Source of the DNA: a virus
Taxonomy: Duplodnaviria > Caudoviricetes
Virus record (IMG/VR): IMGVR_UViG_3300030372_002914
Location: 865 to 64,864 of that record
Direction: 5' to 3' (one strand)
DNA: 64,000 bases
Positions 1,867 through 43,800 of the stretch are shown piece after piece (position 1 is the stretch's first letter; every line of letters begins with the position of its first letter). Under the pieces are notes generated by a model. The model saw only the letters and a program-made list of their open reading frames with translations, was not told where the DNA came from and made no database searches. The position numbers were made by a program, and so were the translations under genes.

Positions 1867-2211
1867 ATGGCAAAAGAAATTTCAGAAGAAAGTAAGTTTC
1901 AAATTAGTATTAAAACATTAATAACTATAGTAGTTGCTGTTGCGACTGTTATATCTGCTTATTTTGGCTTAATGAGTAGTATTAATTCTAAGTTTGTAGA
2001 ACTTGAGGATAAAGTAGAAGAAGCTTTAGAAAAACCTAAACCAGGTACTGGTACTTATACTATAGATATGGGTGATCCAGCCGCTAGTAATTCTTGGCCA
2101 CCAACCCGTATGGAGTTTAATATGAAAGATCAAATGGCTCGTAATCAAATTGATGCGTTAGTAAAGGAGATAGATGAAATGAAAGAGGAAATAAAAGATT
2201 TAAGAAAATGA
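1867..2211 (+). CDS. Single-pass membrane protein with coiled-coil C-terminus
   Basis: Hydrophobic segment TLITIVVAVATVISAYFGLM; heptad-rich C-terminus. Confidence 0.6.
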   Translation: MAKEISEESKFQISIKTLITIVVAVATVISAYFGLMSSINSKFVELEDKVEEALEKPKPGTGTYTIDMGDPAASNSWPPTRMEFNMKDQMARNQIDALVKEIDEMKEEIKDLRK

Positions 2212-2609
2212 TTAAAAGAATAGACGTATCTAATTACCTTTATATACTAATGATGGTGTTCATGTTCTTATGTGGAACAGCATTTAGTCAAGATTTTGTT
2301 ACTGCTGATAACTTTAAAGATAAAATAGCTAAAGATATAACAATCATTGAATTCTGGGCTGAATGGAATCAAATGAATCAGTTTAATGAATTAATTAAAT
2401 TAAAAGGATGTAATGTATATCGAATCGATATTATGTCTTATATGGACATCCAAATGAATTATAACGTTACAGCTATACCAACTGTAATCATATTTGATAA
2501 TGGCGTTGAAAAAGAAAGATTTAATCCTAATGTAATGTTTAAACTAGACGCTGACAAAAAAACAGTACAACACTCGGTTGATACTATAACACTAAATAAA
2601 TTTCAATAA
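2208..2609 (+). CDS. Exported thioredoxin-fold protein lacking the CxxC motif
   Basis: Hydrophobic N-terminus ending AFS/QD; IIEFWAEWNQMN at the WCxxC position; cis-Pro motif AIPTVIIFDNGVEKERF. Confidence 0.7.
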   Translation: MIKRIDVSNYLYILMMVFMFLCGTAFSQDFVTADNFKDKIAKDITIIEFWAEWNQMNQFNELIKLKGCNVYRIDIMSYMDIQMNYNVTAIPTVIIFDNGVEKERFNPNVMFKLDADKKTVQHSVDTITLNKFQ

Positions 2610-2982: not shown

Positions 2983-3309
2983 ATGGCTTATGTACAAAAG
3001 AATAATCCGATACCTATAACCGGGTGTGGTAGACGTAGGGCGGAGCAAATGGCTAATCCATTTAAAAAAATAAGCAAAAGATCTTTATCTAAAGTATCTA
3101 CTCAATTAAAAAAAGCTAGTAAACTACACGCTGATCAAGCTAGTAAAATAGATAAAGCTATAGATAGTCCTTTAAAAAAAGGTATTAGCGGACCTTGTAA
3201 GTCTGCAGCAAAAAGAAAATTTAAAGTATGGCCAAGCGCTTACGCTTCTGGATGGGGCGTAAGGTGTACTAAAGCTGGTGGCCCAAGTAAATACGGAGGT
3301 AGTAAGTAA
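2983..3309 (+). CDS. Small basic protein of short modules (KRKFKVWPSAYASG module)
   Basis: MAYVQKNNP leader; NPFKK and SPLKK separators; Cys-flanked basic module of a type I recall from marine phages. Confidence 0.65.
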   Translation: MAYVQKNNPIPITGCGRRRAEQMANPFKKISKRSLSKVSTQLKKASKLHADQASKIDKAIDSPLKKGISGPCKSAAKRKFKVWPSAYASGWGVRCTKAGGPSKYGGSK

Positions 3310-4175
3310 TGTTTAAGGGTTTTAATATAGATAGATTTAAAAGAATGAAACCACCTTCTGACAACTCGTTTAATACGATGCAGGAGGTAAAGCAGCTTAA
3401 TAGTATACCTATGAATAAGTCTTCTGTTCAAAAGTACGATAACATAGAAAAAACCTTTGCTGATATAGCTGCTAAAAATAATATAACTAACTACGACTCT
3501 AAACTAGTAGGTGATTTAATTAAAAAATCAGCACCAATAATAACTAAGTTAAAAAAGCATTTTAATAGACCTAGACCTAAAGTAATGGCTAAAAAATTAG
3601 GTATACGTATGGCAGACTATGAAATGAACTCTATGAAAACACCATCATATCCTAGTGGTCATTCAACTCAAGGCGTTTTAATAGGTAAAGTATTAGCAGA
3701 TAAATACCCTAAAGCAGCCAAACAATTTATTAAGGCTGGTAAAAACATTTCTGATAGTAGAAGAATAGCTAAAGCTCACTACAAATCTGATAGTAAAATG
3801 GGTGAAATGCTAGGTAACGAAATGTACAAACATGCAAAAGCCTCACCATTGAAATGTTGGAAAGGTTACGAAAGAGTACCTGGTACAGCTAAAGGCTCTA
3901 AAGGTAGTTGCCGTAAGTCTTCGCCAATGAAAAAACAAAAAGGTGGTGGTACAACTAAAACTTGTTTACCTGCAGCTAAGATACGTGGCATGAGTAAAGA
4001 AAAAAGGCAAGAGCTAGTTAGCTCTAAAAAGGCAGCTGGTGCACAGGGTAAATATAAAAGATCATCTAAAACAAACGTTAAAGGCGCTAGAAAAAAAGGT
4101 GCTACGTTAAGAGACTGGTTTCAAAAAGAAGACTGGAGAAGAGTAGATGATCCTTCTAAAAAATGTGGAGAATAA
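3309..4175 (+). CDS. Soluble PAP2/acid-phosphatase-superfamily domain fused to basic peptide modules
   Basis: All three PAP2 motifs: KxxxxxxRP (KKHFNRPRP), PSGH (SYPSGHS), SRxxxxxHxxxD (SRRIAKAHYKSD); no TM helices; C-terminal CWKGY and LRDWFQKEDW modules after SPLK and SPMKK. Confidence 0.75.
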   Translation: MFKGFNIDRFKRMKPPSDNSFNTMQEVKQLNSIPMNKSSVQKYDNIEKTFADIAAKNNITNYDSKLVGDLIKKSAPIITKLKKHFNRPRPKVMAKKLGIRMADYEMNSMKTPSYPSGHSTQGVLIGKVLADKYPKAAKQFIKAGKNISDSRRIAKAHYKSDSKMGEMLGNEMYKHAKASPLKCWKGYERVPGTAKGSKGSCRKSSPMKKQKGGGTTKTCLPAAKIRGMSKEKRQELVSSKKAAGAQGKYKRSSKTNVKGARKKGATLRDWFQKEDWRRVDDPSKKCGE

Positions 4176-4721: not shown

Positions 4722-6587
4722 TTAAACAATTTCACAATTTCCACCAGCACAAGCTAACTCGCCTGATAGATCTGTATTATCATCACTTTCAATAACTCTC
4801 GTTAAATCAATATCAGATAACACTTTGGACATTTTGTTGTATTCAGCTTCGTTAATGTCCTCAAACGGAGCCTGAGTGTACGTACCACCATCGTATGGTA
4901 ATACTGATAACCCATTGTAATATTCTCTATTACTCCACATCCATTCCCCAGCTTCATCCCATTCATTTTCTTTAAGAGATATTGTAGCAGATACATTATG
5001 CGTATTACTACCTCGTCTATGACCAGGTTGTATCCATTCTAATGCTACACGTTTTACTCTTTCAAGAGTATCAAATGGTGATTCAGTTCTGAGTATTGAT
5101 TCAGCTGGAGCTTTCTGTGGTACAGAAATAACAGCTGTATCGTGTGGTCTGAAGTACTCATCTTCAATTAATTCAGGGTGTGACTTAGATAAATATTTAT
5201 ATATAGCCTCGTTTTTCCCTACACGCATCCTACGAACATAATAATCATTATGCCAAGCATGAATACCCGATGATGTCCCGAGGACCAGAGATGTTGTCCC
5301 TGCAGGTTTTACGGTTGTACATCTAGCTGATGCTTTTATCCCTATGATCTTTGCTACTCGTGCATTTTCTTTTGTCACGATATTTGCAGCGTCCTTCATA
5401 TCCATTTGGAGCACAGCGGCACTCCCTATTCCTGTCATTGACACACCTATAAGAGCGTCTTTTTCTGTTGTCTCTTTCCATATTTCTCTAAGATAATGAA
5501 AGTCGGTGTATCCAGCTTGCAACGTTCCAATTAACGCAGCAGCTTTTACTCTGTTATTAAAATCATTTTGATCTTCAATATCAGATACATTAACTTCACA
5601 TAGATTACAGAACTGAAATGGTCTAAGTGCTATCTCACAACAAGGATTAGTTCCCCAATCCTTATCGTTATTAAGATATATACCAGGTTCTCCAGCTCCA
5701 GATAATTCAACTCTTTTCCATAAGTCCATAAAGAACTCTTTAGTTACCTTATGTCTCATTAAAACAGCAGAATTATTTGCTCTACCTCTTTGTGGGTTAG
5801 TTTCCCACCAAGATCCAGATTTACACGCTATCATATCATTATCAGTAGCTGTAAACAAACTAATTAATGCAGCTCGTCTAATACCACCAGCTAATACAGC
5901 ATCTGCTATATGGCATATAATATCGTGTACCTCTAATGAAGTTAAAGCTACACCATCTTCTTTAGATTGAAGTATACCTTCAACTTTGGTTAAACATTCT
6001 TTTAAAGGCTGTGGACCAGGTGCCTTACCACCTGATGTCACTAGCCTAGCACCTTTTGGTCTAATACATGTATAATCAAAGTTTACTTTGGAAAGCTTCT
6101 TATTACTAAGATAAGTTTTCATAAGTACTTTAACCGCGTCAGACCAACCTTCAATTGAATCACCTATAACAAACCTTCTAGATCTTTTCATAAAAGGTTT
6201 TGTTACCATAGGTAAATCTTTTATATGATGCTGTTGAACCGAATAACCGACTCCACATCCTGAAAGTAATAGAAACATTATCTCATTGAAAGCATCTACA
6301 CCATCTACAGGTAAGTAAGAACAGTTATATAATCTATTTGGACTCACTTGAATAGGTTTACCAGCAAATTGTAAACTTCTCATTGAAGGTAATACCTTTT
6401 TAGTGAATACATATGTATAAGCTTTTCTTATTTCAATTTCTAATTTTGGATAATTCTTGATATGCATCTGCATATTTCTTTCAACTAGCTCGTCCCAAGT
6501 CTCTCTACGATTTAACTCAGGCATGTACCTAGCATATTTCATATGAACAGTGATATCAGAAAGTATGTTTCTATTTATATCTTTCAT
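4722..6587 (-). CDS. nrdJ: Class II (adenosylcobalamin-dependent, monomeric RTPR-type) ribonucleotide reductase
   Basis: VLPSMRSLQFAG, YNCSY, GCGVGYSV, RRAALISL, TNPCCEIAL, FCNLCEVN, TTVKPAGTTSL, C-terminal ACAGGNCEI; no beta subunit gene nearby. Confidence 0.92.
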   Translation of the reverse strand: MKDINRNILSDITVHMKYARYMPELNRRETWDELVERNMQMHIKNYPKLEIEIRKAYTYVFTKKVLPSMRSLQFAGKPIQVSPNRLYNCSYLPVDGVDAFNEIMFLLLSGCGVGYSVQQHHIKDLPMVTKPFMKRSRRFVIGDSIEGWSDAVKVLMKTYLSNKKLSKVNFDYTCIRPKGARLVTSGGKAPGPQPLKECLTKVEGILQSKEDGVALTSLEVHDIICHIADAVLAGGIRRAALISLFTATDNDMIACKSGSWWETNPQRGRANNSAVLMRHKVTKEFFMDLWKRVELSGAGEPGIYLNNDKDWGTNPCCEIALRPFQFCNLCEVNVSDIEDQNDFNNRVKAAALIGTLQAGYTDFHYLREIWKETTEKDALIGVSMTGIGSAAVLQMDMKDAANIVTKENARVAKIIGIKASARCTTVKPAGTTSLVLGTSSGIHAWHNDYYVRRMRVGKNEAIYKYLSKSHPELIEDEYFRPHDTAVISVPQKAPAESILRTESPFDTLERVKRVALEWIQPGHRRGSNTHNVSATISLKENEWDEAGEWMWSNREYYNGLSVLPYDGGTYTQAPFEDINEAEYNKMSKVLSDIDLTRVIESDDNTDLSGELACAGGNCEIV

Positions 6588-6726: not shown

Positions 6727-7173
6727 TTATTTCGTTTTATTAGTTAATAATTCTATTACTTGATCACATTCCTTTTGGTTTTGAGGCTTATATAAAGTCA
6801 CACGTGGATAGCATTTGTTTATAAATCTTTTAAACAATTTCCATCTCATTGGGAAACTTTCATTAGCTCTACCTTTTGTTTCAATTATAAAATCTTCTCC
6901 AATAAAATCTGGAGTATATTTTATAGGTAAAATCTTTTTATTTCCTCTGTCTACAAACTGTCCTTTACCATTAGACTGCCTTTCATAACTTGAGGATTCA
7001 AAGTCAAAACCTTCTATTAAAGTATATGTTCTACCCTCATAATCAGCTTTTATTTTAGCCTTTTTTAAAGCTTGATACATATACTTCTCTAGACCGGACG
7101 CGAAGGTCACACCATCATATGTAACCTTCTTTGATCTTACTGGTCCTTTTTTTCTATTCTTTCGATATTTCAT
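6727..7173 (-). CDS. T7 endonuclease I-like PD-(D/E)xK nuclease / Holliday junction resolvase
   Basis: FASGLE...YTPDF...IIETKG motifs. Confidence 0.8.
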   Translation of the reverse strand: MKYRKNRKKGPVRSKKVTYDGVTFASGLEKYMYQALKKAKIKADYEGRTYTLIEGFDFESSSYERQSNGKGQFVDRGNKKILPIKYTPDFIGEDFIIETKGRANESFPMRWKLFKRFINKCYPRVTLYKPQNQKECDQVIELLTNKTK

Positions 7174-7432
7174 CTAATATATCTTTAAGTTCTTCTTGTG
7201 CTGTCTGTATATACAGAATTGCATCCATAAGCTCTTCTTGAATATCAACTAAATATTTCATTAGACCTTTCATTTTCGTTGTTCTCTCTTCGTGAAGAGT
7301 CGTGCCATATTTTCTAAATCCCTCATCGGATCTAGTTTTAAATTTATCTACTACACGTTTTACAACAGGATCTCTAAACTCGTCTTCATCAACGATAAAA
7401 CCCTTAGCGTCCATAATTTCTCTACTACTCAT
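7154..7432 (-). CDS. Small all-alpha phage protein, possibly MazG-like NTP pyrophosphohydrolase fold
   Basis: RS..G..KYGTTL and QEELMDAILY motifs; EExxD resembles the all-alpha NTP-PPase metal site. Confidence 0.45.
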   Translation of the reverse strand: MSSREIMDAKGFIVDEDEFRDPVVKRVVDKFKTRSDEGFRKYGTTLHEERTTKMKGLMKYLVDIQEELMDAILYIQTAQEELKDILDEISKE

Positions 7433-7433
7433 A

Positions 7434-8231
7434 TTAATTATTTTTTACAAATGTTCCATTAACCATCTTGCCTTGTCTATTAACTATCTCAGCATAAGCT
7501 CTTTCAGTACATTCCTCTATTGTAGTACCACAAAGTTCTGCTAAGTTAGTTAGCACAACTACCATATCACCTATACCGTCCATGATCTCGTCATCGTCGT
7601 CTTTTAATATAGCTCTACCAACTTCACCAGCCTCTTCCATTAGTTTAACGTATTGAGTTTTAGCATCACCGGATTCATATATCCCTCTTTGTTCCGCCCA
7701 TTCTCTAATCATATCAAACATAGGTACATACTCATGTTCAACAGGAGCTTGATTAGGTGTTGGTTTGTTTTTAAAATACTTAAGCATAGCTTTATTATAT
7801 ACATAACATCTATCATTGTTATACATAGAAGTTACTGCATTCTTAACTATCCACTTAGTAAGAGCAGGACCTAATATAACTGTACCATGATCTGTTTCCC
7901 AGCTCATTTCTTGGTTATCCATTAGTTGACCCTTTAATTTATTAAGTGGACATGGAAATGTTGTTGTTTGTTCTGTCACGTTTATCTTCATATTCTTATT
8001 AAATTTATTATTATTAAACAATTCACTATATGGTTTCATATCAACTCTGTAACCATATTCTTTTTGAAGCTCTAGTTCACGTTTAGATATATAATCTATA
8101 TCTTCAGATGATTCTAGAATTTCGTACTCACCTACCTCATATCCTTGTTGACACTCAACTCTATTATATAAGTCATTTGTAACTCCGATTTTTTTACCTG
8201 GTATGTGGTATAATATATATTCTTTATTCAT
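7434..8231 (-). CDS. Fusion: N-terminal GIY-YIG-like nuclease domain + linker domain + C-terminal MazG-like nucleotide pyrophosphohydrolase
   Basis: N-term YILYHIPGKKIGVTNDLYNR...RELELQKEYG; C-term KLMEEAGEVGRAILK...EIMDGIGDMVVVL (EExxE...ExxD MazG motif). Confidence 0.7.
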   Translation of the reverse strand: MNKEYILYHIPGKKIGVTNDLYNRVECQQGYEVGEYEILESSEDIDYISKRELELQKEYGYRVDMKPYSELFNNNKFNKNMKINVTEQTTTFPCPLNKLKGQLMDNQEMSWETDHGTVILGPALTKWIVKNAVTSMYNNDRCYVYNKAMLKYFKNKPTPNQAPVEHEYVPMFDMIREWAEQRGIYESGDAKTQYVKLMEEAGEVGRAILKDDDDEIMDGIGDMVVVLTNLAELCGTTIEECTERAYAEIVNRQGKMVNGTFVKNN

Positions 8232-8883
8232 TTATCTTTTCTATTATATTGTTATACAAATGCAAGTTATGTGCAAAATGGAAATATTCACCAACTAGTA
8301 ATCCAAGTTCATCGGCAACTAATAATTGTAATTTTGAAAAACAATATTGATCGTTGCAGAAACCATACCAGAGGTCATTAGAACGCATCGTAACACACAT
8401 ATTAAGCTTTTGACCTACAATTGTAAATTGTACAGCATAGGTACAAGGAGTATCATACTCATAAGCTTTCCATTCTTTAGCATCATAAATACTAATTGCA
8501 GCTTGTCTGGTTCTAGGGTTGTCTTTTAAAAGTTGAATAACCATATCTAATTGGTCGTTTCTTTTCCATTGCCAACCATAATTAGAATTAACATTGCCAT
8601 CTTCATCAGCCATATGTTTCCATATTTCAGGAACTTTACCATAAAGATCTTCTAACTTATGAACGTTTCTGTTACCAGATAAATACCACTGCCATTCAGC
8701 TTCAGCATATTCCTGTTTCCAGTTTCTAGTTTTAAGTCCGTCATGAATAACATTATCCATTGGTTTTTTTATAGTAAAACCCACATTAAATAATGCTAGT
8801 GTATCATCAAATGGTTTACCAAATGTTAATATCTGATTAACATAGTAATGAAATGCTCCGTCTGCGTTTTTAAAATTTATCAT
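8224..8883 (-). CDS. Thymidylate-synthase-superfamily enzyme most similar to T4 gp42 dCMP hydroxymethylase
   Basis: E63 (AEWQWY), PEIW..MA...GNVNSNYGW, catalytic C147 (TPCTYAVQF), MRSNDLWYGFCND with Asp178 31 residues after the Cys, where dUMP-specific ThyA has Asn. Confidence 0.75.
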   Translation of the reverse strand: MINFKNADGAFHYYVNQILTFGKPFDDTLALFNVGFTIKKPMDNVIHDGLKTRNWKQEYAEAEWQWYLSGNRNVHKLEDLYGKVPEIWKHMADEDGNVNSNYGWQWKRNDQLDMVIQLLKDNPRTRQAAISIYDAKEWKAYEYDTPCTYAVQFTIVGQKLNMCVTMRSNDLWYGFCNDQYCFSKLQLLVADELGLLVGEYFHFAHNLHLYNNIIEKINE

Positions 8884-9218
8884 ATCTTTTTTCTTTTTTT
8901 AGGATCGTATATATCTCCCCAAATTGGTTTACGTTTTCTTCTTGCGGCTTCTATTTGTTTGTTACTATATTTATCATAATAATACTCGCAATATTTGTAA
9001 ACTTTTTCCATGACATCTTTTTTGTCATAAATTTTAGGGTCGAGATTTTTTTTGCCCTTTATTGTTATACCTATTCTCCATTGAGAATCACCATTCACAC
9101 AGTGATACTCTGGGTTTATAATTATATCATTCTCATCACACCAAAAATAAGGTATTAAATCATTATTTTCTCTTGTGTGATCAGGAAAGTCCCAATTATC
9201 ATTATCTAACTTTCCCAT
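8880..9218 (-). CDS. Hypothetical protein
   Basis: Tightly packed ORF in the replication operon. Confidence 0.6.
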   Translation of the reverse strand: MGKLDNDNWDFPDHTRENNDLIPYFWCDENDIIINPEYHCVNGDSQWRIGITIKGKKNLDPKIYDKKDVMEKVYKYCEYYYDKYSNKQIEAARRKRKPIWGDIYDPKKRKKI

Positions 9219-10924
9219 GGCAAATCTCCTACATTAGTTTCTGTTACTATTGGTACATAACTACCAGACTTAGGCTCCCAGTTAAAATGAGCTTCAGCTT
9301 GATTCTCACCAAGGTTTTGAAATTTAACTTTCAATACCTTAACTTTAACGGTTTGAGCTTCATAATCTCTATGAACTAATAAACCGTGGTAACTAGCATC
9401 ATACCATTCACCGCCACCTTTAATGCTGTACATTGTTGGCTCTTCAATTTTACCTTCTTTGTCTCTGTACATTTTAGTAGGGTGAGCAACAACCATAACC
9501 AATACATCATACTTTTTAGCAAACGTCTCGATCTTAGTTAAATACTCCATAGTATAACGATTAACATCTTCTGTCTTGCAGTCAACATCTCTAATCTTAT
9601 TAAAAGGATCAATGACTAAACATTTAATACCTTTACGTTTAACAAGCTCAGCGCCTTTACGTAATACATTTTCTAATGTATACCTATCCATATCAATAAA
9701 ATAGTAATTATCATTAATATGATTTGTGACTTGTTTCCATTTAGCAGAACCAATATCATCTTTTGTTGGCATACCTTCCCATGTCTTACGTATCAACTTA
9801 TGAGCATGCAAAAAATTAGGTTTGTTCTCTGGTGACGCAAAAGCTGTTTTCCATCCGTAGTTTTTATTATAACCTATACACATTTGGTCTACAAAATCTG
9901 ATTTACCTGATGATGGTATACCTGTTACAGTAATAAACTGTGAGGTATATGTAGAAAATATCTTATCGAAATTATCTAAACCAACTTGAAAACCAGGTTT
10001 AAAACCATTGTGTACAAAGTCTAATAAATCAGCTTCTAAGTCTCTAAGAGTTGAAACTCCTTCTAATGGAACTTGAGTAGCAGATGTTATAACTTTTCTA
10101 AGTTCTTCTGCTCCGTGTTCTATTAAAAAGTCATTAGGATCTTTATTACCATTGAAATCTACTAAGTAGCAAACCTCAGCGCCAAGACGTCTAATGAACT
10201 CATATCTTAAAGCTTGTCCAGCCTCATCAGCATCAACTGCTAATATAATCTTTTCTTTATCTTCGAAATAATCAATACAATTATCTAAATAATCTAAATT
10301 ATTATTATTTAACGTAGCGCCGTTAGGAACTGATATCACGTTTTTAATTCCAGCTTCGTGTAATGCTAGAGCATCCATTTCACCTTCTGTGATAACACAC
10401 CAGTCATATCCTACAATACTATTAATATTATAGAATATTTTTTCAGCACCTTTGTACAGTTTAAAGTTTTTTCTACCATCTCTATACTTTATATTAATAA
10501 GTTCTTCACCCATAATATAATTAAATTGTATAGTATTTTCTTTTTGGCCAGTTTGAGGCATATACTCTTCACCTGTGGTAACATTTAAGTCACGAAGGGA
10601 AGCTGGTGATATGCCTCTAGTCTTAAACCATTCAACTGCCTTGTCTTTAACTGGCTCAAATATTTCAACCGGTATTGGTTTTACATATTCTCTAGTCGCA
10701 TTACCTTTACGTTGGTAAGTATGTAATTGAAAACTAGTATCACAGTTATGACAGGTACCGAGACCACGTTCCCAATCGTAAGAAGCGCATTGTGCTGTTC
10801 TGTTTTTAGGTTGTCTATTGTGGGAACACAGAGGACATATCCCCTGCGTTTTACCCGCTTCTAAACCGTGTTGATTGAACTGGTCAATCTTAAATCCATT
10901 GATCTCTGTATTCTCTATATTCAT
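9206..10924 (-). CDS. T7 gp4/Twinkle-type primase-helicase
   Basis: Zn-binding CPLC...CHNC, TOPRIM ITEGEMDAL and AVDADEAG, SF4 Walker A GIPSSGKS, VIDPFN, VAHPTK; start reassigned to ATG 10924 (MNIENTE) to avoid overlap with SSB. Confidence 0.92.
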   Translation of the reverse strand: MNIENTEINGFKIDQFNQHGLEAGKTQGICPLCSHNRQPKNRTAQCASYDWERGLGTCHNCDTSFQLHTYQRKGNATREYVKPIPVEIFEPVKDKAVEWFKTRGISPASLRDLNVTTGEEYMPQTGQKENTIQFNYIMGEELINIKYRDGRKNFKLYKGAEKIFYNINSIVGYDWCVITEGEMDALALHEAGIKNVISVPNGATLNNNNLDYLDNCIDYFEDKEKIILAVDADEAGQALRYEFIRRLGAEVCYLVDFNGNKDPNDFLIEHGAEELRKVITSATQVPLEGVSTLRDLEADLLDFVHNGFKPGFQVGLDNFDKIFSTYTSQFITVTGIPSSGKSDFVDQMCIGYNKNYGWKTAFASPENKPNFLHAHKLIRKTWEGMPTKDDIGSAKWKQVTNHINDNYYFIDMDRYTLENVLRKGAELVKRKGIKCLVIDPFNKIRDVDCKTEDVNRYTMEYLTKIETFAKKYDVLVMVVAHPTKMYRDKEGKIEEPTMYSIKGGGEWYDASYHGLLVHRDYEAQTVKVKVLKVKFQNLGENQAEAHFNWEPKSGSYVPIVTETNVGDLPWES

Positions 10925-10925
10925 A

Positions 10926-11237
10926 TTAAAATGGTAAATCCTCTTTAGCTGCAGCAGAAGCCTGAGGCGCTGCTTGCGGTTGATTATCTCTAGGTGCGGT
11001 ACCAACATTTTCACCGTTTGTCCACACTACTTTTACATTACCCAAGTAAGTCTTAGAAGCCTTAGCCTCTCTTTCTTCCTTCGTTTGCTCAACAACCACT
11101 GGACCTTGATTTCCAAACTGGTCTACATCATCATTAAGCGTTATTGTTATAGGTAGGTATTTACCTTTTTTACCTACAAATATTTTATCTTTCGGTATTT
11201 CAGAAAGATTTATTGAAGCTTTTATTATACTTGCCAT
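10926..11237 (-). CDS. Single-stranded DNA-binding protein (putative)
   Basis: Beta-rich core, Q/A/P-rich linker and acidic DLPF C-terminal tip; adjacent to primase-helicase. Confidence 0.7.
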   Translation of the reverse strand: MASIIKASINLSEIPKDKIFVGKKGKYLPITITLNDDVDQFGNQGPVVVEQTKEEREAKASKTYLGNVKVVWTNGENVGTAPRDNQPQAAPQASAAAKEDLPF

Positions 11238-12775: not shown

Positions 12776-13540
12776 TTACAGATAGTCAACCACTTGCGAG
12801 TACTCAACTTTCTCGATTAGTTTATCAATTGCAAGTTTTTTTAGCTGTGAAATACGCACGTAAGAGCTACTACCTTTTATCCCTAAAATATCAGCAATAT
12901 CTTTAGCTGAATGCTTTTCGCAGTCAAGCCCGTATGATAGTCTTAATACTTGAAACTCTTTAGGATTTAAGTATTGTAACATTAAAGCTTTTATATACAC
13001 TGATAATAATTGTTTGTTATAATTATTTTTATCTGGTATATTATAAGCAGCATTTTGTTGCTCTGGTGTACCATCATCAAGACTTGTAAACACTGAGTTA
13101 AAAAATAACTCTACAGCTTTTTTATCTTCACCGAAATCTTTTCTGATTTCATTTAGTTTGTGTTCAGGTATTCTCATGCTACCTCTATTGCTATCAATAC
13201 CTCTTCGTATAGCACCTTTAATTCTTTTTGATAGAAAAGATTTTAAAGTTTTTTCTTGATCTTTAGCTACTAATATAGTATCCCAATCTATTCTATCCGC
13301 TCCAGCCGTTAAACCATAATTACCTTCTTGTAAAAGATCATTAATAGTCATAACGCCACTAGCCGCTTGAGCTGTTGAGAATTTCCTAGCTAAATTTTCT
13401 ACAAGCGGTAGAAATCTAGTTATTAATTGATCTCTACTCAACTCTTCATAAGGTAGATCAGGTAATCTTTGTAATTCAGCACTCATATCGTGCTTATATC
13501 TTACATAATTCTGTACATTATACTTTTTCATATTTTTCAT
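12776..13540 (-). CDS. Phage-encoded sigma-70 family RNA polymerase sigma factor
   Basis: Region 2 LPLVENLARKF...DLLQEGNYGL...IKGAIRR...MRIPEH; region 4 LNPKEFQVLRLSYGL...AKDIADILG...RISQLKKLAIDKL. Confidence 0.88.
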   Translation of the reverse strand: MKNMKKYNVQNYVRYKHDMSAELQRLPDLPYEELSRDQLITRFLPLVENLARKFSTAQAASGVMTINDLLQEGNYGLTAGADRIDWDTILVAKDQEKTLKSFLSKRIKGAIRRGIDSNRGSMRIPEHKLNEIRKDFGEDKKAVELFFNSVFTSLDDGTPEQQNAAYNIPDKNNYNKQLLSVYIKALMLQYLNPKEFQVLRLSYGLDCEKHSAKDIADILGIKGSSSYVRISQLKKLAIDKLIEKVEYSQVVDYL

Positions 13541-13964
13541 TTAAGTTTTTAATATATTCTAAACATGCACTCCAGTTTCTATTGTCCCAGTTCTTATTAA
13601 ACCAAAACCAATTACCTTGGAAATCTGGTTGACCTCTGAATCTAGTATCATCTATTAGAACATCACCGATTAATAAATCTTTTCTATGTGTAAGAATTAA
13701 CCTACGTTTTAAGTATGGAAAATGCTCTTCAAGCCATTCTCTTTTATGACCCCATACTTCAGGTCTTGTCCAAGGAGGAGTTGATGCTATAAAAATCTCG
13801 TGGTCTGCATTTAGCTCGGCTAAAACTTCTATAGCACCTTCCATTACTGGTAATGTTCTGTAGTTTACTACAAGATCTGGTCTTTTACTAAGTTTGTAAC
13901 CTTGGTATTCTTGACCTTTTTTAAAGTCAGTAATAACTCCGTCCATATCTATATATATTCTCAT
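13518..13964 (-). CDS. HAD-family 5'(3')-deoxyribonucleotidase (NT5C-like)
   Basis: IYIDMDGVITDF, IASTP, K..W...HF, KDLLIGDVLIDD. Confidence 0.85.
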   Translation of the reverse strand: MRIYIDMDGVITDFKKGQEYQGYKLSKRPDLVVNYRTLPVMEGAIEVLAELNADHEIFIASTPPWTRPEVWGHKREWLEEHFPYLKRRLILTHRKDLLIGDVLIDDTRFRGQPDFQGNWFWFNKNWDNRNWSACLEYIKNLNEKYEKV

Positions 13965-18736: not shown

Positions 18737-18766
18737 ATTATCCACACTCATTCGTATTTATATTGT
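18737..18766 (-). promoter_or_regulatory. Early promoter-like motif E3
   Basis: ACAATA-TAAATACGAA-N8-GATAAT-N6-ATG; begins at the tRNA-Arg discriminator base. Confidence 0.75.
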
Positions 18767-18839
18767 GACTGAGGTAGGATTCGAACCTACACTCCATACC
18801 TTAGAAGGGTATTGCTTTATCCAGTTAAGCTACTCAGCC
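18766..18839 (-). tRNA. trnR: tRNA-Arg(UCU)
   Basis: Acceptor GGCTGAG/CTCAGTC, D-loop with TGG, anticodon arm ATACC-CTTCTAA-GGTAT, T-arm GTAGG-TTCGAAT-CCTAC; CCA not encoded; AGA is the visibly dominant Arg codon in the window. Confidence 0.93.
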
Positions 18840-22510: not shown

Positions 22511-24076
22511 ATGGAATACAACTTACCAAGCGAATTGGTTAAGAACTTAGACTTCGGTGGTGAAGCTAAAGATAGAGTTATCACCGGAGTTAATAAGTTA
22601 GCCCAAGCTGTTAAATCAACATTAGGCGCATCAGGTAAATGCGTTATTTACGAAGATGGCAGAGGCAAGCCGGTCATTACAAAAGATGGAGTAACCGTTG
22701 CAGAAAGCGTAGTCTTATATGACCCGGTCGAAAACATGGGCGCGACCTTAATCAAAGAAGCTGCTAGAAATACAGTAAAAGATGCTGGTGATGGCACAAC
22801 AACTGCTACAGTACTAGCTGAAGCAATAATCAAGCAAGTAGACACTGCGATCGCAGATGGTCTTACAATCAGAGAAATTAAAGATGGAGTAACAGAAACA
22901 CTAGATAGTGTCATTGGCTATTTAAATGATATAGCTATTGATGTAGAAGGTGATATGCTTAAATCTGTTAGTGCTATATCTTGTAACAACGATAAAGAGC
23001 TAGGAGCTATTATAGCTGAAGCTTACGATAAAGTTGGTAAAAATGGTGTAGTACTTATGGAAGAAAGCGAATCTGAAGATACATATGTTGACGTAGTTGA
23101 TGGTGTTAAAGTTGATTGTAACTTAACATCACCGCATTTTGTCACCAATACTGAAAAACAAACATGTGAATTAGACAAACCACTAGTTTTTATATGTTCA
23201 TCTGAAATACCTAATGTTCGTAAGATTCAGTCAATATTAGAATATGTTATTAAAAATAACAGAGCTTTATTAATTGTAGCACCAGTAGCACAACAAGTTA
23301 AAGCCGCTTTACTAATGAATAAAGTAAAAGGCACTATAAAGGTTAACGTTATTGATTTACCAGGCTTTGGTCCTACTAAAAAAGATGCCACTGAAGATCT
23401 AGCTATACTTACTGGAGCTACTGTTCTAAATGAAGAACTTGGTGATGATTTAGATCTTATGAAACCAGAACATTTAGGTGAAGCTGAGTTTGCTATAACT
23501 GATGATAAAAATACTGTACTAACTCTAGAAGGTATGACTGAAGGTATCGAAGATAGAATAGATGAGTTAAACAAACATTTAACCGAGGAATCAAACGGTT
23601 TTATTAAAAAGAAACTTGAAGATAGATTAGCTATGTTATCAGGTAGTGTAGGTATAATACGTGTTGGCGCTAATTCTAAAGTTGAACTAAAAGAAAAGAA
23701 AGATAGAGTTGAAGATGCTATATATGCAACTAAAGCCGCATTACAAGAAGGTATAGTACCAGGTGGTGGTATTGCATTACTAAATGCATCTCAAAAAATT
23801 TCGACCAGCAAGGCTGGTGAAGTATTACTTAATGCTTTATCTTCTCCATTTGAAGTAATTATGGACAATGCTGGATTAATGATGAATCCTAGTAATCTAA
23901 AAGAAGGTTATGGTTGTAACGTAATAGATGGAACGTTTCCTAATATGGTACGTGAAGGAATTATAGATCCTGTACTTGTAACTAAGTCTGCACTTAAAAA
24001 TGCTGTAAGTGTAGCATTAACTATTATGTCAGCAGATTGTGTAATCTCAAATATAAGAGTAAATGAAGGCGGTTAA
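22511..24076 (+). CDS. groEL: Phage chaperonin GroEL (Cpn60)
   Basis: [49 protein letters not shown]; lacks the GGM tail. Confidence 0.97.
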
Positions 24077-37813: not shown

Positions 37814-40800
37814 ATGCCGGAAATTAAAAGAACATTTACAGCCGGTAAGATGAACAAAGATCTCGATGAGAGATTAGTTCGTAACGGCGAATATAGAGAC
37901 GCTTTAAACATACAAGTTAGAACCACTAGTGGAGAAGACGGCATTGGTGATGCTGGTGTAGTTCAAAACATTAAAGGTAATAGTTATAAAGGTGTTGCAC
38001 ATATAACTAAGACCTATACGCTTCCCAATGAAGATGATGTTTTATTATACACTAAATTCGTAGGTAGCGTTGCTGATGAAAAAAATGATAAGGCTTATTT
38101 TTTCGCGGCATCACCTTTACCAGAAGGTGGATTTGATTCTATAACGCATACATATATAATGGGTGTATATTCTGGGAATCCAGATTTTTGGAATTCAGGT
38201 GATGGATTAAGACATTGGATAGATAGTATAATTGAATTAGACGCTACAACAGAAACTAGTACACCTATTTTTGTTGATAAATACGGAGTTACTGGTAGAT
38301 TGCATGATGTAATAGGTGCGGACAATGTAACCGCTACATCTATAGGTTTAGAATTAAAAGTATTAGACGGATCGCTGTATAGAATCGGCATGATTGCTTA
38401 TTTCTATAACAATGACGGTGAACATTTATTTGTTAATTCTCAAGGCAATGGGGTTAAAATAATAGATATACAAGAAAATAAATTAATTTTAGAATCAGAG
38501 CAAGACTTAAATTTACAAACTGAATTAACTAACGGCAACATAGATTATAGAAGTGCGTTTAAATTTATATATCCAGAAAGGGTTTTAGAATTTGATTATA
38601 ACTCTTTGATACCAAACATTAATATAATAGACAATCTGTTATTTTATACAGATGGTAAAAATGAGCCAAAAAAAATAAATATTGACAGATCTAAAGCTGG
38701 TACTATTTTTTCATTAATAGAAAGCTATATAGACCCTGACTCACAAGAAGATACTATAATAGAATTTCCAAATATCCAAACAGCTGAATCTTACCTTGAA
38801 AGACCTAAACACACAAAGTTATTTGTTAATAATACTATTATAGATGCTGATCAAGAACTTGTAGAAGTAAAAGAATTAGAATGGGACGTAAAAACATCTG
38901 ATATAAAAAGAGAGCATATTACAGTTATAAGAAAAGCTCCTTTATCACCACCAACATTAGAAATTAGTAACACAGATAGAGAAGGGAGTGTTAGTTTTCC
39001 TTTATCTTATTCTGGTTTTATACAAAATGGAGAACCTATATTTGGGGAAACTAGAGTTATACAAGCTAATATTCTTTTGAATCAAGATGTTAGATTAAAT
39101 GATGTATTAAGATTTACTAGCGATGAAAATAATAATAATCCAGTCACAATTGTAACTAGGGTAATTGGTATTAACGGGCCTAACGCTATAGAAGTTCAAT
39201 TAACTTTCATTGACCCTGATTTAATATCTCAAGAACCATCATTATGGAACGTAGAGGTAGAGCAAGAAAAACCTTTATTTGAAACTAAATTCGGTAGAAT
39301 AGGTTATAGGTATCAATATGAAGACAATGAATATTCTACTTTTTCTCCTTGGTCTGAATTAGCTTTTTTACCAGGGGGTTTTTCATATACACCTAGCAAA
39401 GGCTATAATGAAGGTATGTCTAATAACACTAGAAAACTAGTAATTAGAGATTTTATACCAGATAATTCTATAAGACCTATTGATGTTAAGAAAATTGATA
39501 TACTTTGGAAAACAACAGATGACCAAAATGTATATGTTATAAAAAGTATAACTAGAGGTAGAGATGTAGAGTGGGATGTTCTTGGCCAAGAAACTAAAGG
39601 TGAGCTAACTATGACATCAGAAATGATACATAGAGTGTTATCTAATGAACAATTATTAAGATCTTGGGATAATGTACCTAAAACAGCTTCAACTCAAGAG
39701 ATAACAGGTAGTAGACTTGTTTTTGGTAATTACACACAAGGATATGATATAAATAAAGTAGTAAATTTAGAACAATCATTATTATCAGATACTGTAATTC
39801 CTCTTGAGCCTAAAAAATCTATTAAATCTATTAGGAATTATAAATTTGGAATGGTATTTGGGGATAGATATGGTAGAGAAACGCCAGTGTTAGCAAGAGG
39901 TTATAATATAGGTGTTAATTCTGGCGTAACTGGAGATACTAGTATTGATAAAAGTTTAGCTAGTTTTTCTAATAAATTTAGAGTAAAACAAAATTGGGAG
40001 ACAGAACCAGAGGATTGGATGGAGTACGTAAAGTATTACGTAAAAGAAACTTCTAATGAGTATTATAATTTAGTAATGGACAGATGGTATATTGCTGACG
40101 ATGATAACTCAACAATATGGATGTCTTTTCCATCTGTCGATAGAAATAAAGTTGATGAAGAAACTTATTTGTTGTTAAAAAATGAACATGGATCACAAAA
40201 CGCTGTCGTAGACAGGGCTAGATATAAAATATTAGCAATAGAAAGTGAGGCTCCAGATTTTATTAAAACTGATTATAGAAAATTTGAAAAAGTTTTAATA
40301 GACCCTGAGAATGTTTTTAGTGACACAGATACATCAAGTGGTATTCCAGATAAATTAATTGGGAGTAAAACAATAAGGACAGACACTACTAACTGGGAGC
40401 TCGCTGAAGGTGGCTTGACTCCTGAAATACAAGCTGATCAGTTTAAAGGTACTATTAAAGTAAGAATAGTTGGAGAAGTTGCTGATAACCCAAGTGTAAC
40501 TTTACACACTCGTTGGATAACTGTTGCTAGAGTAAAAAGCGGACCAGGTAATGATAGAGGTTGTGATATGAAAGAAGAGTTCACTACTGAGGAAGCTAAC
40601 ATGTACATAAGGTTAGGTAACATATTTACAATTGACGCTGCGGCAAACGTAGCAGTAAATTATTATATGGAATTTATGGATGAGGTTGTAGAAAATAAAC
40701 CAGAATTTGACGGTAGATTTTTTGTAAAAATAGAAAAAGATCCAATACTAACTGAATACGTAGCGTCTTCTACTTCTGGTACTCAATGGCAACCGGAAAT

Positions 40801-43800
40801 GAGCACTAAAGTAGGTTATATAACCAACAAACCTGAAAATGACGCTTTTATATTACAAACTGGAATGGATGGTTTTCCAAGCGGATTTAATATTGCAAAT
40901 TATACTGAAGATTCAATTGACAATTATTATAGCGCTGTCCAAGCTGTTAACCTTGCTGGAGGAAATAATGATTGGGGTCTTACTGAAACTGGTTCTGGTG
41001 TGGTACCATCTTTTATTTGGGACGGTGGCATTAATGGTAATAGTAGAACTCAAGATTTTTGGAACTGGCACAATACACAAGTTTCAGAAGGAAATGCCCC
41101 TAAAATATTTATTGATGCTATACCTGCTTTCCGTGGGTGGAATAAAGTAGAGTCAGTATCGCTTGGAATTGGTTTTGGTGGAGTTGAAAATGATATACTC
41201 GTAGATCTCCCAAGCCGCTTTGATTCTAGAAATCCTTACGTAGCAGAACATCCAGACTACGAAGTTGACGCTCCTGGTAATTATGATCCGGGAGATCCTC
41301 CTAGATTACCAGTAAGTTTATGGTTTAACGACCAGTTTTATGCAGGAGAAGATTGGATAAATGGGTTTAGTTATATTGGTTCGAACTCTTACGTTTATGG
41401 CGGTGTTCCTTATGGACCGGGAAACAACCCGGAGCAACAAACAAAAAACTATTTACCGCCTGGGTTCTCACAAGGCTCAGGTAGTTCAGGTACTTACAAT
41501 CAATTTTGTTTTTCTGTAGTTGGGGAGACAAGTGGTTTTGGTACCGCCACTAGTAACGAACAAGAGTTCAAATCAAGAATGCAAAGTGTTGGTCAATGTT
41601 TTAGATTTCAAGAGGATGCAGATCAAACTGTTTACAAGATAATAGCAAATACACAACTTGTTAACCCAAATGCACCGGAAAATCAAGCTGCTATATTTAA
41701 TGGAGAAATATCTATAGATAGTATAAATTATCACACAGATAATTATCCCGATGATTTAGTTGCTAAAAGACACTCAATAGTTGTTAGATTTGTGAGATTA
41801 GATACTTTTGGTGGAGAAATGTATGATAATGGCTCGCCAGTTGGTATAGATTATAGTGAGTTTGATCCTAGAGGTTATGTTGGAAGTGATGGTATAGGTA
41901 ATTTTACAATAGAGTTTGTAACGGAATTAAATGAAAGTGAATTAATCGAAGACTCTATAAGAACTGATAAAGCTTGTTGGGAAACCGAACCTAAAAAAGA
42001 CATGGATATAGATATATACTATGAGGCTAGCGGGGCTATACCAATGAACTTAAAAGAAAATAACATACAAATTTATGCTCAACCTTCTAATTCCTTATTA
42101 TTAGAAAAAGCTAAATTAGCTAGTACAGTAGATATTCTTTCTAGAAAGATTGGTCCAGATCAAACTGTAGAAGTAAATATAAATAGTGGTTTAGATTATG
42201 GTTTTAGTAGTATATTTGCTTACGTGTGTAAAACTATAGGTAATAGAGGTATTATGATAGCGCATAATAATGATAATGCGTTCGCTGCTAATAATTTGAT
42301 TACTTTTCCAAGTATTAATGATGTAAATGAAATATATACAAGAAATTACCCAGCTATAGATGACTTTATAACATTCACACATCCAAATGGTTTAATAACT
42401 AGATCAAAAATAATAGATCATTTAGCGGTTAACTCGATAGCTCCTTTTGATAAAACAAACAATATAAGTCCATCATATAGAGACACAATTGATAGTGGTG
42501 CGACATTTAACGTCATAAACGATGGGCAACCTAGAGGTTATTTCTTTGCTCAAACTCCATCACCGCTTCAAGTTGGAATGGAATTAAGGGGAACTTTTGT
42601 TAAACCTGGGAGTTTTATATGTTTTCAAGTTGATTTTGGGTCATTTGGAACGCTTTTTGCTATTAATCAACATTTTAAAGAAGAAGTTGAGGGAATAGCA
42701 TACAACGAAGAATCATTAGTTTTAACAGGTATAGAAACAACAGGTTTTTTTGAAATAGATCCTGAGGTATGGAAGTATGAAGTTGATTTAAACTGGTTTA
42801 ATTGTTATTCATTTGGTAATGGTGTGGAATCAGATAGAATAAGAGATGATTTTAACGCGCCAACTATTGATAATGGTATAAAAGCTTCATCTACGTTTTT
42901 AGATTATAAAGAAGAAACTATAGGTAGTGGATTAATACACTCTTCTGAGCTATATAACGCTATATCTAGTGTTAATGGTTTAAATGAGTTCAGTATGGGA
43001 CAAAAAATAACTAAAAATTTAAATCCAATTTATGGCTCTATACAGGCTTTAAAAACAAGAGACACAAACTTGGTTACCTTCTGTGAAGATAAAGTTTTAA
43101 AAGTATTAGCAAATAAAGACGCTGTATTTAATGCTGATGGTAATCCACAATTAACAGCTACAAATAGAGTTCTTGGGCAAACAATACCATTCGCCGGGGA
43201 TTATGGTATATCTAAAAATCCAGAATCATTAGCTGTTGATCAATATAGAATGTATTTTACAGATAAACAAAGAGGTGCTGTATTAAGATTATCTGGAGAT
43301 GGTTTAACACCTATATCCAATGTTGGCATGAAAACATATTTTAGAGAAAATTTACGAGACTGTAGTTCTATAGTAGGTACTTTTGATGCTGAAAACGGTG
43401 AATACAATGCTACTCTTAATTTTAATGAGGAATCTCAAAAAAATTCTACAACTGTAAGTTTTAATGAAGGGGGTAAAGCTTGGGTTAGTTTTAAATCTTT
43501 TCTACCTAATTGTGGTGTTTCTGTAAGTGGTAAATATTTTACAACACCTACTATAGAACAGTCTTTAAATGCTCAAAACTATATAGCCGCGAGTAGTAAA
43601 ATTTGGCTGCATAATGCTAATGAAACGAGAAATAATTTTTATACAATTGATGAATTTAAATCAACTATAGAAGTCATATTTAATGATATGCCTAGTGTAG
43701 TAAAATCTTTTAAAGCTGTAAACTACGAAGGTACACAGAGTAGAGTTTTAGAAAACACAAGTACGTCGTATGGTGGTGATGGGGAATATTATAATATAGA

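Follow-up and report, generated by a model that had tools for sequence, protein, structure and literature searches.

The window analyzed here is a stretch of 64,000 nucleotides of viral DNA, corresponding to bases 865-64864 of the complete 64,864-bp IMG/VR virus record IMGVR_UViG_3300030372_002914. Three tightly packed minus-strand genes span positions 7154-8883 of this window: the gene for a 219-amino-acid (aa) predicted deoxycytidylate (dCMP) hydroxymethylase of the thymidylate-synthase fold (8224-8883), directly downstream of it the gene for a 265-aa fusion protein of three domains, the last of MazG type (7434-8231), and after this the gene for a 92-aa protein with a QEELMD motif (7154-7432). 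The stop of the hydroxymethylase gene overlaps the start of the 265-aa gene by 8 nt, and the stop of a 112-aa gene immediately upstream (8880-9218, minus strand) overlaps the start of the hydroxymethylase gene by 4 nt, and these overlaps suggest co-translation. An initial annotation, made from the sequence of the window, had proposed that the locus is a cytosine-modification module built around a relative of gp42, the dCMP hydroxymethylase of phage T4.

The 219-aa protein matches the Pfam family Thymidylat_synt (PF00303, E 1.3e-28), and its top match in the PDB is T4 dCMP hydroxymethylase (1b49, E 7e-19, 41% identity over the core). Cys147, within DTPCTY, and Asp178, within GFCND, lie exactly 31 residues apart, which is the spacing of C146 and N177 in E. 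coli ThyA and of C148 and D179 in T4 gp42. Both the presence of a ThyA-fold protein with this spacing and its likeness in motifs to gp42 had been claimed in the initial annotation, and both are borne out by the fold match and by HMMER, which aligns PEIW, GNVNSNYGW, CTYAVQF and MRSND..GF.ND of the 219-aa protein to PKIW, GEINSNYGW, CTNTVQY and MRSNDVVFGFRND of T4 1b49.

Conservation was assessed in 81 homologues from IMG/VR contigs. Invariant among these are the catalytic Cys147, which aligns with T4 Cys148; Asp178, which stands at the position of ThyA Asn177 (T4 Asp179); Asp144, three residues ahead of Cys147 in DTPC; Ser100-Asn101-Tyr102, aligned with the SNY of T4 (Ser94, Tyr96); Asp170, retained at ThyA position 169; and Arg126 and Ser168, which align with Lys133 and Ala176 of MilA. 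Directly after the cysteine, Thr148, likewise invariant, replaces His147 of ThyA, and the remaining key residues of the protein are Glu63, Trp88, Met91, Met166, Arg167, Asn169, His208 and Tyr210. The C-terminal tail of the ThyA type is absent, as the protein stops 9 residues past His208-Leu-Tyr210 and the homologues measure 212-228 aa. MAFFT places a gap near position 143, so residues there were counted from the cysteine, a count borne out by HMMER alignments to both T4 and MilA.

These residues were tabulated against E. coli ThyA, RB69 Td, T4 gp42, RB69 gp48 and PaMx74, as well as the deoxyuridylate (dUMP) hydroxymethylases of SPO1, ViI, M6 and phiW-14. PaMx74 serves as the reference of the 5-methylcytosine (5mC) type in place of Xp12, its product being taken from preprint context. 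At the tabulated catalytic positions (58, 80, 94, 126, 146, 147, 165-169, 173, 177, 207 and 209) the profile is that of T4 gp42, and it differs from that of every other reference class.

Several published rules bear on how such a profile is to be read. By experiment, MetaGPA established that the thymidylate-synthase domains of cytosine-modified phage contigs from the environment have Asp at 177 and no His at 147 (PMC8670742). Asp at ThyA position 177 selects dCMP (PMC8670742, PMC13326640), and the non-His residue at 147 is the second discriminating position in MetaGPA (PMC8670742). The signature of hydroxymethylation consists of a water-activating Asp or Glu three residues before the cysteine, a Ser(Thr)-x-Tyr motif and the absence of the ThyA C-terminal tail, and the D145N mutant of the T4 enzyme is inactive (PMC6400193). 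Lys133 and Ala176 give MilA its preference for cytidine monophosphate, whereas Arg and Ser favor dCMP (PMC6400193). Asn at 169 (D169N) marks flavin-dependent 5-hydroxy-dCMP synthases (PMC13326640, 2026), and Leu143 accompanies methyl products whereas an acidic residue accompanies hydroxymethyl products (PMC13326640).

The 219-aa protein matches these published signatures residue by residue, and with Asp178 at the 177 position the earlier argument that an Asn-to-Asp switch points to dCMP specificity holds. On comparison of sequences, it is strongly supported that the protein is best called a dCMP hydroxymethylase with 5-hydroxymethyl-dCMP (5hm-dCMP) as its product. We predict this product and not 5-methyl-dCMP because of Asp144, Ser100-x-Tyr102 and the lack of a C-terminal tail, and we do not expect 5-hydroxy-dCMP because Asp170 is retained. 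The initial annotation had left the modified base as either 5-hydroxymethylcytosine (5hmC) or 5mC, and it is the first of the two that these residues favor, while the second becomes very improbable.

A maximum-likelihood tree places the family among the hydroxymethylases and apart from both ThyA and the dUMP enzymes. The hydroxymethylases split from ThyA and PaMx74 with 98/98 support, the dUMP hydroxymethylases form a separate clade (97/96) with the 219-aa family outside it, and the family groups with T4 gp42, RB69 gp48 and the VPE25 and Bacteroides phage enzymes, all of which are Asp177 enzymes. Only well-supported splits of the tree were used, given the long branches of T4 gp42, RB69 gp48 and an enzyme of phage BF486P2 (BF486P2_a).

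The product of the gene directly downstream is modeled by AlphaFold as three domains with confidence (mean predicted local distance difference test, pLDDT, 85). Its C-terminal part (aa 168-265; 7434-7730, minus strand) is an all-alpha nucleoside-triphosphate pyrophosphohydrolase domain of the MazG type, as had been noted earlier for a neighbor of the hydroxymethylase: Pfam MazG (PF03819) matches aa 196-253 with 26.3 bits against a cut-off of 22, MazG-like PHROG families match with E 2e-32 and 6.5e-29, and a PDB profile match to 1vmg has E 1e-6. The fold is matched by 1vmg (Z 9.0 over 81 residues), by the MazG-like enzyme of cyanophage S-2L (Z 8.3) and by mammalian deoxycytidine triphosphatases (dCTPases) of the DCTPP1 type. 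The acidic metal ligands Glu199, Glu200, Glu203, Asp218 and Asp222 (EExxE...ExxD) are invariant, and it is plausible that the domain is a candidate dCTPase.

The N-terminal domain of the same protein (aa 1-72; 8016-8231, minus strand) may be GIY-YIG-like, or T5orf172-like, on weak evidence from models and profiles. Pfam matches to GIY-YIG (E 0.026) and T5orf172 (E 0.052) are both under cut-off. The domain is modeled as a beta-beta-alpha-beta-alpha unit with pLDDT 83-92, and when it was modeled separately its top structural matches were all GIY-YIG proteins, namely I-TevI (Z 5.5), the 5hmC-specific endonuclease PD-T4-3 (Z 5.0), the GIY-YIG domain of UvrC (Z 4.5) and T4 EndoII (Z 3.9). Foldseek with a model of the two N-terminal domains gave no match, and the GIY-YIG trend appeared only in the wider VIA search. 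Invariant residues include Tyr5, Tyr8, Gly16, Arg24, Glu35 and Glu52, and the second motif is KIG instead of YIG. Thus the GIY-YIG nuclease of the initial annotation is not a separate gene; what stays of it, weakly, is a GIY-YIG-like domain of about 70 aa at the N-terminus of the MazG protein. Between the two lies a conserved alpha/beta domain (aa 80-155; 7767-7994, minus strand; pLDDT 80-91) with no Pfam match and no structural match above Z 3.3.

The pairing of enzyme and MazG domain extends well beyond this genome. Relatives of the hydroxymethylase are found on at least 507 IMG/VR contigs, and a large protein collection holds more than 120 clusters of them at a minimum of 74% identity, nearly all 214-232 aa long and with Tara and other environmental assemblies among their sources. 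We compared gene order in the best 80 IMG/VR loci and found a MazG domain after the enzyme in 77 of these, in several genome backgrounds. In most of the 80 the recurrent order is primase-helicase, enzyme, fusion protein, 92-aa gene and DUF1064 nuclease, usually followed by a ribonucleotide reductase, and in two other backgrounds a MazG protein of 100-104 aa, encoded on its own, is the partner. Co-occurrence of thymidylate-synthase domains with deaminases and the MazG-clan family PRA-PH was likewise reported by MetaGPA, specifically for contigs with modified cytosine, a coastal sample included (PMC8670742). A search for Rosetta-stone fusions of the hydroxymethylase among proteins of 385-2000 aa, in itself a weak type of evidence, gave none at E 1e-20. 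Within its own phage group the module is accessory, since neither hydroxymethylase nor MazG is present in the three nearest sequenced terminase relatives, Flavobacterium phage elemoF, Cellulophaga phage phi38:1 and the Manatee Spring podovirus MW202828, two of which are cultured. The search for a cultured phage that could stand in for base analysis thus gave none.

Two of the loci compared carry further genes at the pair. On one contig of a third background (L011:6001-7381) the hydroxymethylase is followed by a dCMP/cytidine deaminase and a 100-aa MazG protein, the same triad as on cytosine-modified metavirome contigs. On the contig of a phage of the Terminase_3 type (L041:3279-6953), a pyridoxal-phosphate (PLP)-dependent enzyme (PALP) and two open reading frames (ORFs) of about 300 aa precede the hydroxymethylase and a 104-aa MazG protein, a cluster that may serve further modification of 5hmC.

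We consider it quite probable that the 219-aa protein represents a minimal, tail-less form of the T4 gp42 type of folate-dependent deoxycytidylate 5-hydroxymethyltransferase, and that it acts together with the MazG domain to give phage DNA containing 5hmC. In the scheme that we infer, which takes in the activity of the enzyme, the dCTP specificity of MazG, the route of phosphorylation and the extent of substitution in the virion, Cys147 would attack C6 of dCMP, by homology with T4, while Asp178 would read and protonate the N3/N4 edge of the cytosine. The methylene group of methylenetetrahydrofolate would then move to C5, Ser100 and Tyr102 would hold the water that removes the C5 proton, and Asp144 would activate another water for addition to the exocyclic methylene; with no hydride transfer, the product would be 5hm-dCMP. 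The class II reductase described below, which resembles the triphosphate-reducing type, would supply dCTP together with the host, possibly directly, and the MazG domain would most likely hydrolyze dCTP to dCMP, thereby both feeding the hydroxymethylase and emptying the dCTP pool. Phosphorylation of 5hm-dCMP to the triphosphate would fall to cellular kinases, and incorporation of the 5hm nucleotide to the host replicase, which the phage primase-helicase would recruit, so that the phage DNA would carry 5hmC, possibly further decorated, and would resist cytosine-dependent restriction.

Several points weigh against this reading. In the enzyme itself, T4 Arg177, which binds the glutamate tail of the folate, corresponds to Cys176, and in the tree, whose branches are very long, support for the entire Asp177 group is no more than 84/41. 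The dCTP specificity of the MazG domain is not readable from its sequence. A homologue of the T4 functions that exclude cytosine-containing DNA is not established, the GIY-YIG-like domain being weak and lacking the Tyr of the second motif. The complete genome has no recognizable deoxynucleoside-monophosphate (dNMP) kinase, with no match to the thymidylate-kinase family and none in the Pfam and PHROG scans, and in E. coli a hydroxylase or hydroxymethylase without its cognate kinase gave only trace incorporation, robust incorporation being obtained solely with that kinase co-expressed (PMC13326640). No DNA polymerase gene is recognizable in the complete genome either, and full substitution would therefore depend on host enzymes.

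E. coli supplied with T4 dCMP hydroxymethylase and kinase puts 5-hydroxymethyldeoxycytidine into plasmid DNA (PMC13326640), and thus a cellular polymerase can use the 5hm nucleotide. No glycosyltransferase is found by family scans of the ORFs, which comprised every frame of at least 90 aa that was taken to be a gene and many of which have no family; the initial annotation had seen none in the window, and its proposed search of the rest of the genome, now run, yields neither a kinase nor a glycosyltransferase that is recognizable in the complete 64.9-kb genome. Its module logic holds, as the hydroxymethylase does adjoin a MazG candidate dCTPase, but the parallel with T4 goes only part of the way, since the genome has no recognizable dNMP kinase, DNA polymerase or glycosyltransferase. 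It is because none of these three is recognizable that full replacement of cytosine in the virion DNA is something we infer. Statistics of restriction sites are compatible with modified cytosine without being diagnostic. Over the whole genome and with a Markov model, CATG is the sole strongly depleted 4-bp palindrome (observed/expected 0.61, z about -6), and the remaining C-containing 4-bp palindromes are at expectation. Separately, GGATCC is absent from the genome where about six copies are expected.

The same predicted enzyme would also fit a phage in which 5hm-dCMP is made but 5hmC is only an intermediate, which conserved neighbors decorate to a hypermodified cytosine in the virion. Candidates for such a role could be the 92-aa and 112-aa proteins, the middle domain of the fusion protein and other ORFs without a family, of which the genome has many. 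Most known 5hmC phages do decorate the base, by glucosylation in T4 and carbamoylation in metavirome phages; the 92-aa gene is syntenic in 60 of the 80 loci, and the pair next to a PLP-dependent enzyme and two ORFs in another lineage points the same way. On the other hand, no glycosyltransferase, carbamoyltransferase, kinase or other transferase family is found in any scanned ORF, and the conserved neighbors are small, which is why we regard decoration as possible though somewhat unlikely.

The missing kinase and polymerase, and the trace incorporation seen in E. coli with related enzymes that lacked their cognate kinase, would also suit a module that merely reshapes nucleotide pools, with MazG draining dCTP and the hydroxymethylase diverting dCMP, so that host replication is hampered or 5hmC enters DNA partially and at a low level. 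This we find decidedly doubtful, as the phage replicates from the same pools and removal of dCTP without a substitute would be self-defeating; moreover, enzymes of the Asp177 type are enriched on metavirome contigs that survive selection for dense cytosine modification (PMC8670742).

The last three alternatives concern the reaction itself. Asp at 177 by itself turns ThyA into a dCMP methylase, and a MazG-clan partner occurs in 5mC modules too, so an enzyme of the Xp12/PaMx74 type and phage DNA with 5mC could be imagined. We reject it as very improbable: position 143, where ThyA has Leu, holds the invariant water-activating Asp144, the protein has the Ser-x-Tyr motif, it lacks the C-terminal tail that would close the site for hydride transfer, and the tree separates the family from PaMx74 and ThyA. 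In addition, 5mC-making homologues are typically linked to a deaminase, whereas no deaminase is associated with the module in the 64,864-bp genome. The Asp177 equivalent, the acidic residue at 143 and the short C-terminus are also common to RB69 gp48, a flavin-dependent 5-hydroxy-dCMP synthase that would mark the start of glycosylated 5-hydroxycytosine; since Asp170 is invariant in the family, whereas RB69 gp48 has Asn in that column (D169N), and no glycosyltransferase or sugar-nucleotide genes were found in the genome, we give this very little credence. That the protein acts on uracil nucleotides, as an ordinary thymidylate synthase or a dUMP hydroxymethylase, has next to no chance, although relatives carry the automatic label 'thymidylate synthase' and NCBIfam thymidylate-synthase models are matched at low scores. 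Asp178, Thr148 and Asp144 stand where ThyA has Asn177, His147 and Leu143, the ThyA C-terminal tail is absent, the NCBIfam thymidylate-synthase equivalog scores of at most 92 bits fall far under cut-offs of at least 108 (e.g., 92 vs 327 bits), and dUMP hydroxymethylases keep Asn177 and form their own clade.

The preferred reading, a dCMP hydroxymethylase working with a MazG domain, could be carried further. The protein with GIY-YIG-like, middle and MazG domains might be a one-polypeptide device for excluding cytosine, in which a nuclease against unmodified, cytosine-containing DNA is joined to a dCTPase, and with the hydroxymethylase, host kinases and host replicase might then suffice for exchange of C for 5hmC throughout the genome of a phage that itself has neither polymerase nor nucleotide kinase. 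We offer this as a tentative idea and think it unlikely. If it were true, full base replacement would need far fewer phage genes than in the T4 paradigm, and 5hmC DNA would be widespread in the abundant Bacteroidota phages of the sea.

Comparison with characterized systems places the enzyme closest to T4 gp42 (EC 2.1.2.8; PDB 1b49, 1b5e and 6a9a). The two have the same fold, neither has the ThyA C-terminal tail, and they share the Glu, the Trp, Ser-x-Tyr, the Arg, the Asp three before the Cys, Cys-Thr, the Met-Arg-Ser-Asn-Asp block, a Gly, the Asp177 equivalent and His-x-Tyr. Unlike gp42, the enzyme described here is 27 residues shorter and has Cys176 and Met91 where T4 has Arg177 and Val85. 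The genomes differ more widely, as this one is without a recognizable gp1 dNMP kinase, gp43 polymerase or alpha/beta glucosyltransferases, and its dCTPase candidate is a MazG domain and no homologue of gp56. The N-terminus of the fusion protein, compared with T4 EndoII (DenA) and GIY-YIG nucleases, has low structural scores, is shorter than typical and has KIG as second motif. RB69 gp48 and DLP3 gp80 (PMC13326640) are likewise short phage enzymes of the thymidylate-synthase fold that have the Asp177 equivalent and, three positions ahead of the Cys, an acidic residue; unlike the 219-aa family, which keeps Asp, those carry D169N and bind flavin.

The modules described by MetaGPA (PMC8670742) resemble this one in that the enzyme has Asp at 177 and a residue other than His at 147 and that a MazG-clan pyrophosphohydrolase is its neighbor, and some relatives have, as those modules do, a dCMP deaminase between the enzyme and MazG genes. 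Unlike in the MetaGPA modules, there is neither deaminase nor carbamoyltransferase here, and two additional domains precede the pyrophosphatase in the same polypeptide. The closest protein from a cultured phage is the 'deoxycytidylate 5-hydroxymethyltransferase' of Bacteroides phage BF486P2 (OP172667; 46% identity over 96% of the length), which shares the signature residues and, at 226 aa, is likewise short. Unlike the virus studied here, BF486P2 is a phage of the gut, and its cluster also contains a dUTPase and another thymidylate-synthase-fold gene. Both of its thymidylate-synthase-fold genes have the Asp177 equivalent, with the dUTPase between them (L091, OP172667: 19770-23283), and in the alignment the Glu58 equivalent, elsewhere universal, is Leu in the product of the first (268 aa). 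We found nothing in the literature on the base composition of phage BF486P2 or of Flavobacterium or Cellulophaga phages. In Enterococcus phage VPE25 (L102, LT615366: 31028-33386) genes for a dUTPase and an annotated beta-glucosyltransferase come after that for a thymidylate-synthase homologue of the Asp177 type, a cluster that suggests glucosylated hydroxymethylcytosine in a well-used group of Enterococcus phages.

The chemistry, the specificity rules and the pairing of enzyme with MazG are already published, and the conceptual gain is small: the enzyme is a minimal and apparently very abundant member of the T4 gp42 kind, in a module type described from metaviromes (PMC8670742). Among natural pyrimidine hydroxymethylases it is about the smallest. 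Should the prediction hold, 5hmC goes into the DNA of a very common group of uncultured aquatic, here marine, flavobacterial phages, which would bear on how these phages escape restriction and possibly CRISPR, and on bias in virome library preparation and in enzymatic or bisulfite methylation calling. It would also bear on the routine mis-annotation of such genes as 'thymidylate synthase'. With no dedicated kinase or polymerase, the phage would furthermore be a convenient test of how much phage machinery is needed for base replacement.

The remaining genes around the module are in part conserved with it. The 92-aa gene has no Pfam or PDB match, and the ESM Atlas returns only viral hypothetical proteins for it; that it encodes a second MazG-like protein we rejected, with a profile-profile probability of 0.8% in hhalign. 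The 112-aa gene, present in 16 of the 80 loci, matches no family in the Pfam, NCBIfam and PHROG scans. On the far side of the 92-aa gene lies a gene for a 148-aa DUF1064 nuclease resembling Holliday junction resolvases (6727-7173, minus strand; Pfam DUF1064 E 9e-9; PHROG 190, Holliday junction resolvase, E 4e-12), syntenic in 60 of the 80 loci. Upstream of the module is a gene for a 602-aa Toprim primase/DnaB-like helicase (9206-11014, minus strand; Pfam Toprim_2 E 8e-14, DnaB_C E 1.4e-7), syntenic in 66 of the 80 and the sole dedicated component of a replisome that was detected.

Two further neighbors named in the initial annotation are likewise found, a ribonucleotide reductase and a deoxynucleotidase. 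The former is a 621-aa class II, B12-dependent enzyme (4722-6587, minus strand) closest to the triphosphate-reducing RTPR type (NCBIfam TIGR02505, E 2.9e-82, under the curated cut-off), which also matches PHROG 367 (E 9e-133) and Pfam ribonucleotide reductase domains; a 133-aa thioredoxin-like protein (2208-2609, plus strand; Pfam Thioredoxin E 9.5e-8) is its possible reductant. The latter is a 148-aa protein like 5'(3')-deoxyribonucleotidases of the NT5C type (13518-13964, minus strand; Pfam NT5C E 2e-13, with PHROG matches).

The 64,864-bp record has direct terminal repeats of 99 bp. Apart from a few uncultured viral records, the large terminase has matches only among phages of Flavobacterium, Cellulophaga, Tenacibaculum and Maribacter, which supports the view that the virus is a flavobacterial podophage and fits the earlier call of a Bacteroidota podophage; no near-identical DNA was found among cultured phages. 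The genome also has genes for an ERF recombinase, a PDDEXK exonuclease, a sigma factor, a DNA ligase, the terminase, a portal and structural proteins, and two of its ORFs are giant, at 2343 and 3789 aa. P-loop motifs are confined to the helicase, to large virion-type proteins and to non-kinase contexts, the sole non-helicase kinase motif being in the 3789-aa ORF of the structural module (48937-60306, plus strand), whose aa 2657-2806 form an AAA_33/Zeta-toxin-like P-loop kinase domain. This domain has no PDB relative by sequence; it is 86% identical in the closest relative and absent from another, which is 92% complete and bears the module. We considered it as a dNMP kinase delivered with the virion and rejected it as a required partner.

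The 2343-aa ORF (37814-44845, plus strand) has a weak match, under cut-off, to the C-terminal domain of the muzzle protein of crAss-like phages (E 4.5e-4) and a spurious-looking 15.5-bit match to a fragment of DNA_pol_B. Elsewhere in the window are a PAP2-superfamily (lipid phosphatase-like) ORF of 288 aa (3309-4175, plus strand), a lone tRNA-Arg(TCT) gene in the early region (18765-18839, minus strand) and a gene for a phage GroEL-like chaperonin (22511-24076, plus strand; PHROG 5725, E 4e-132).

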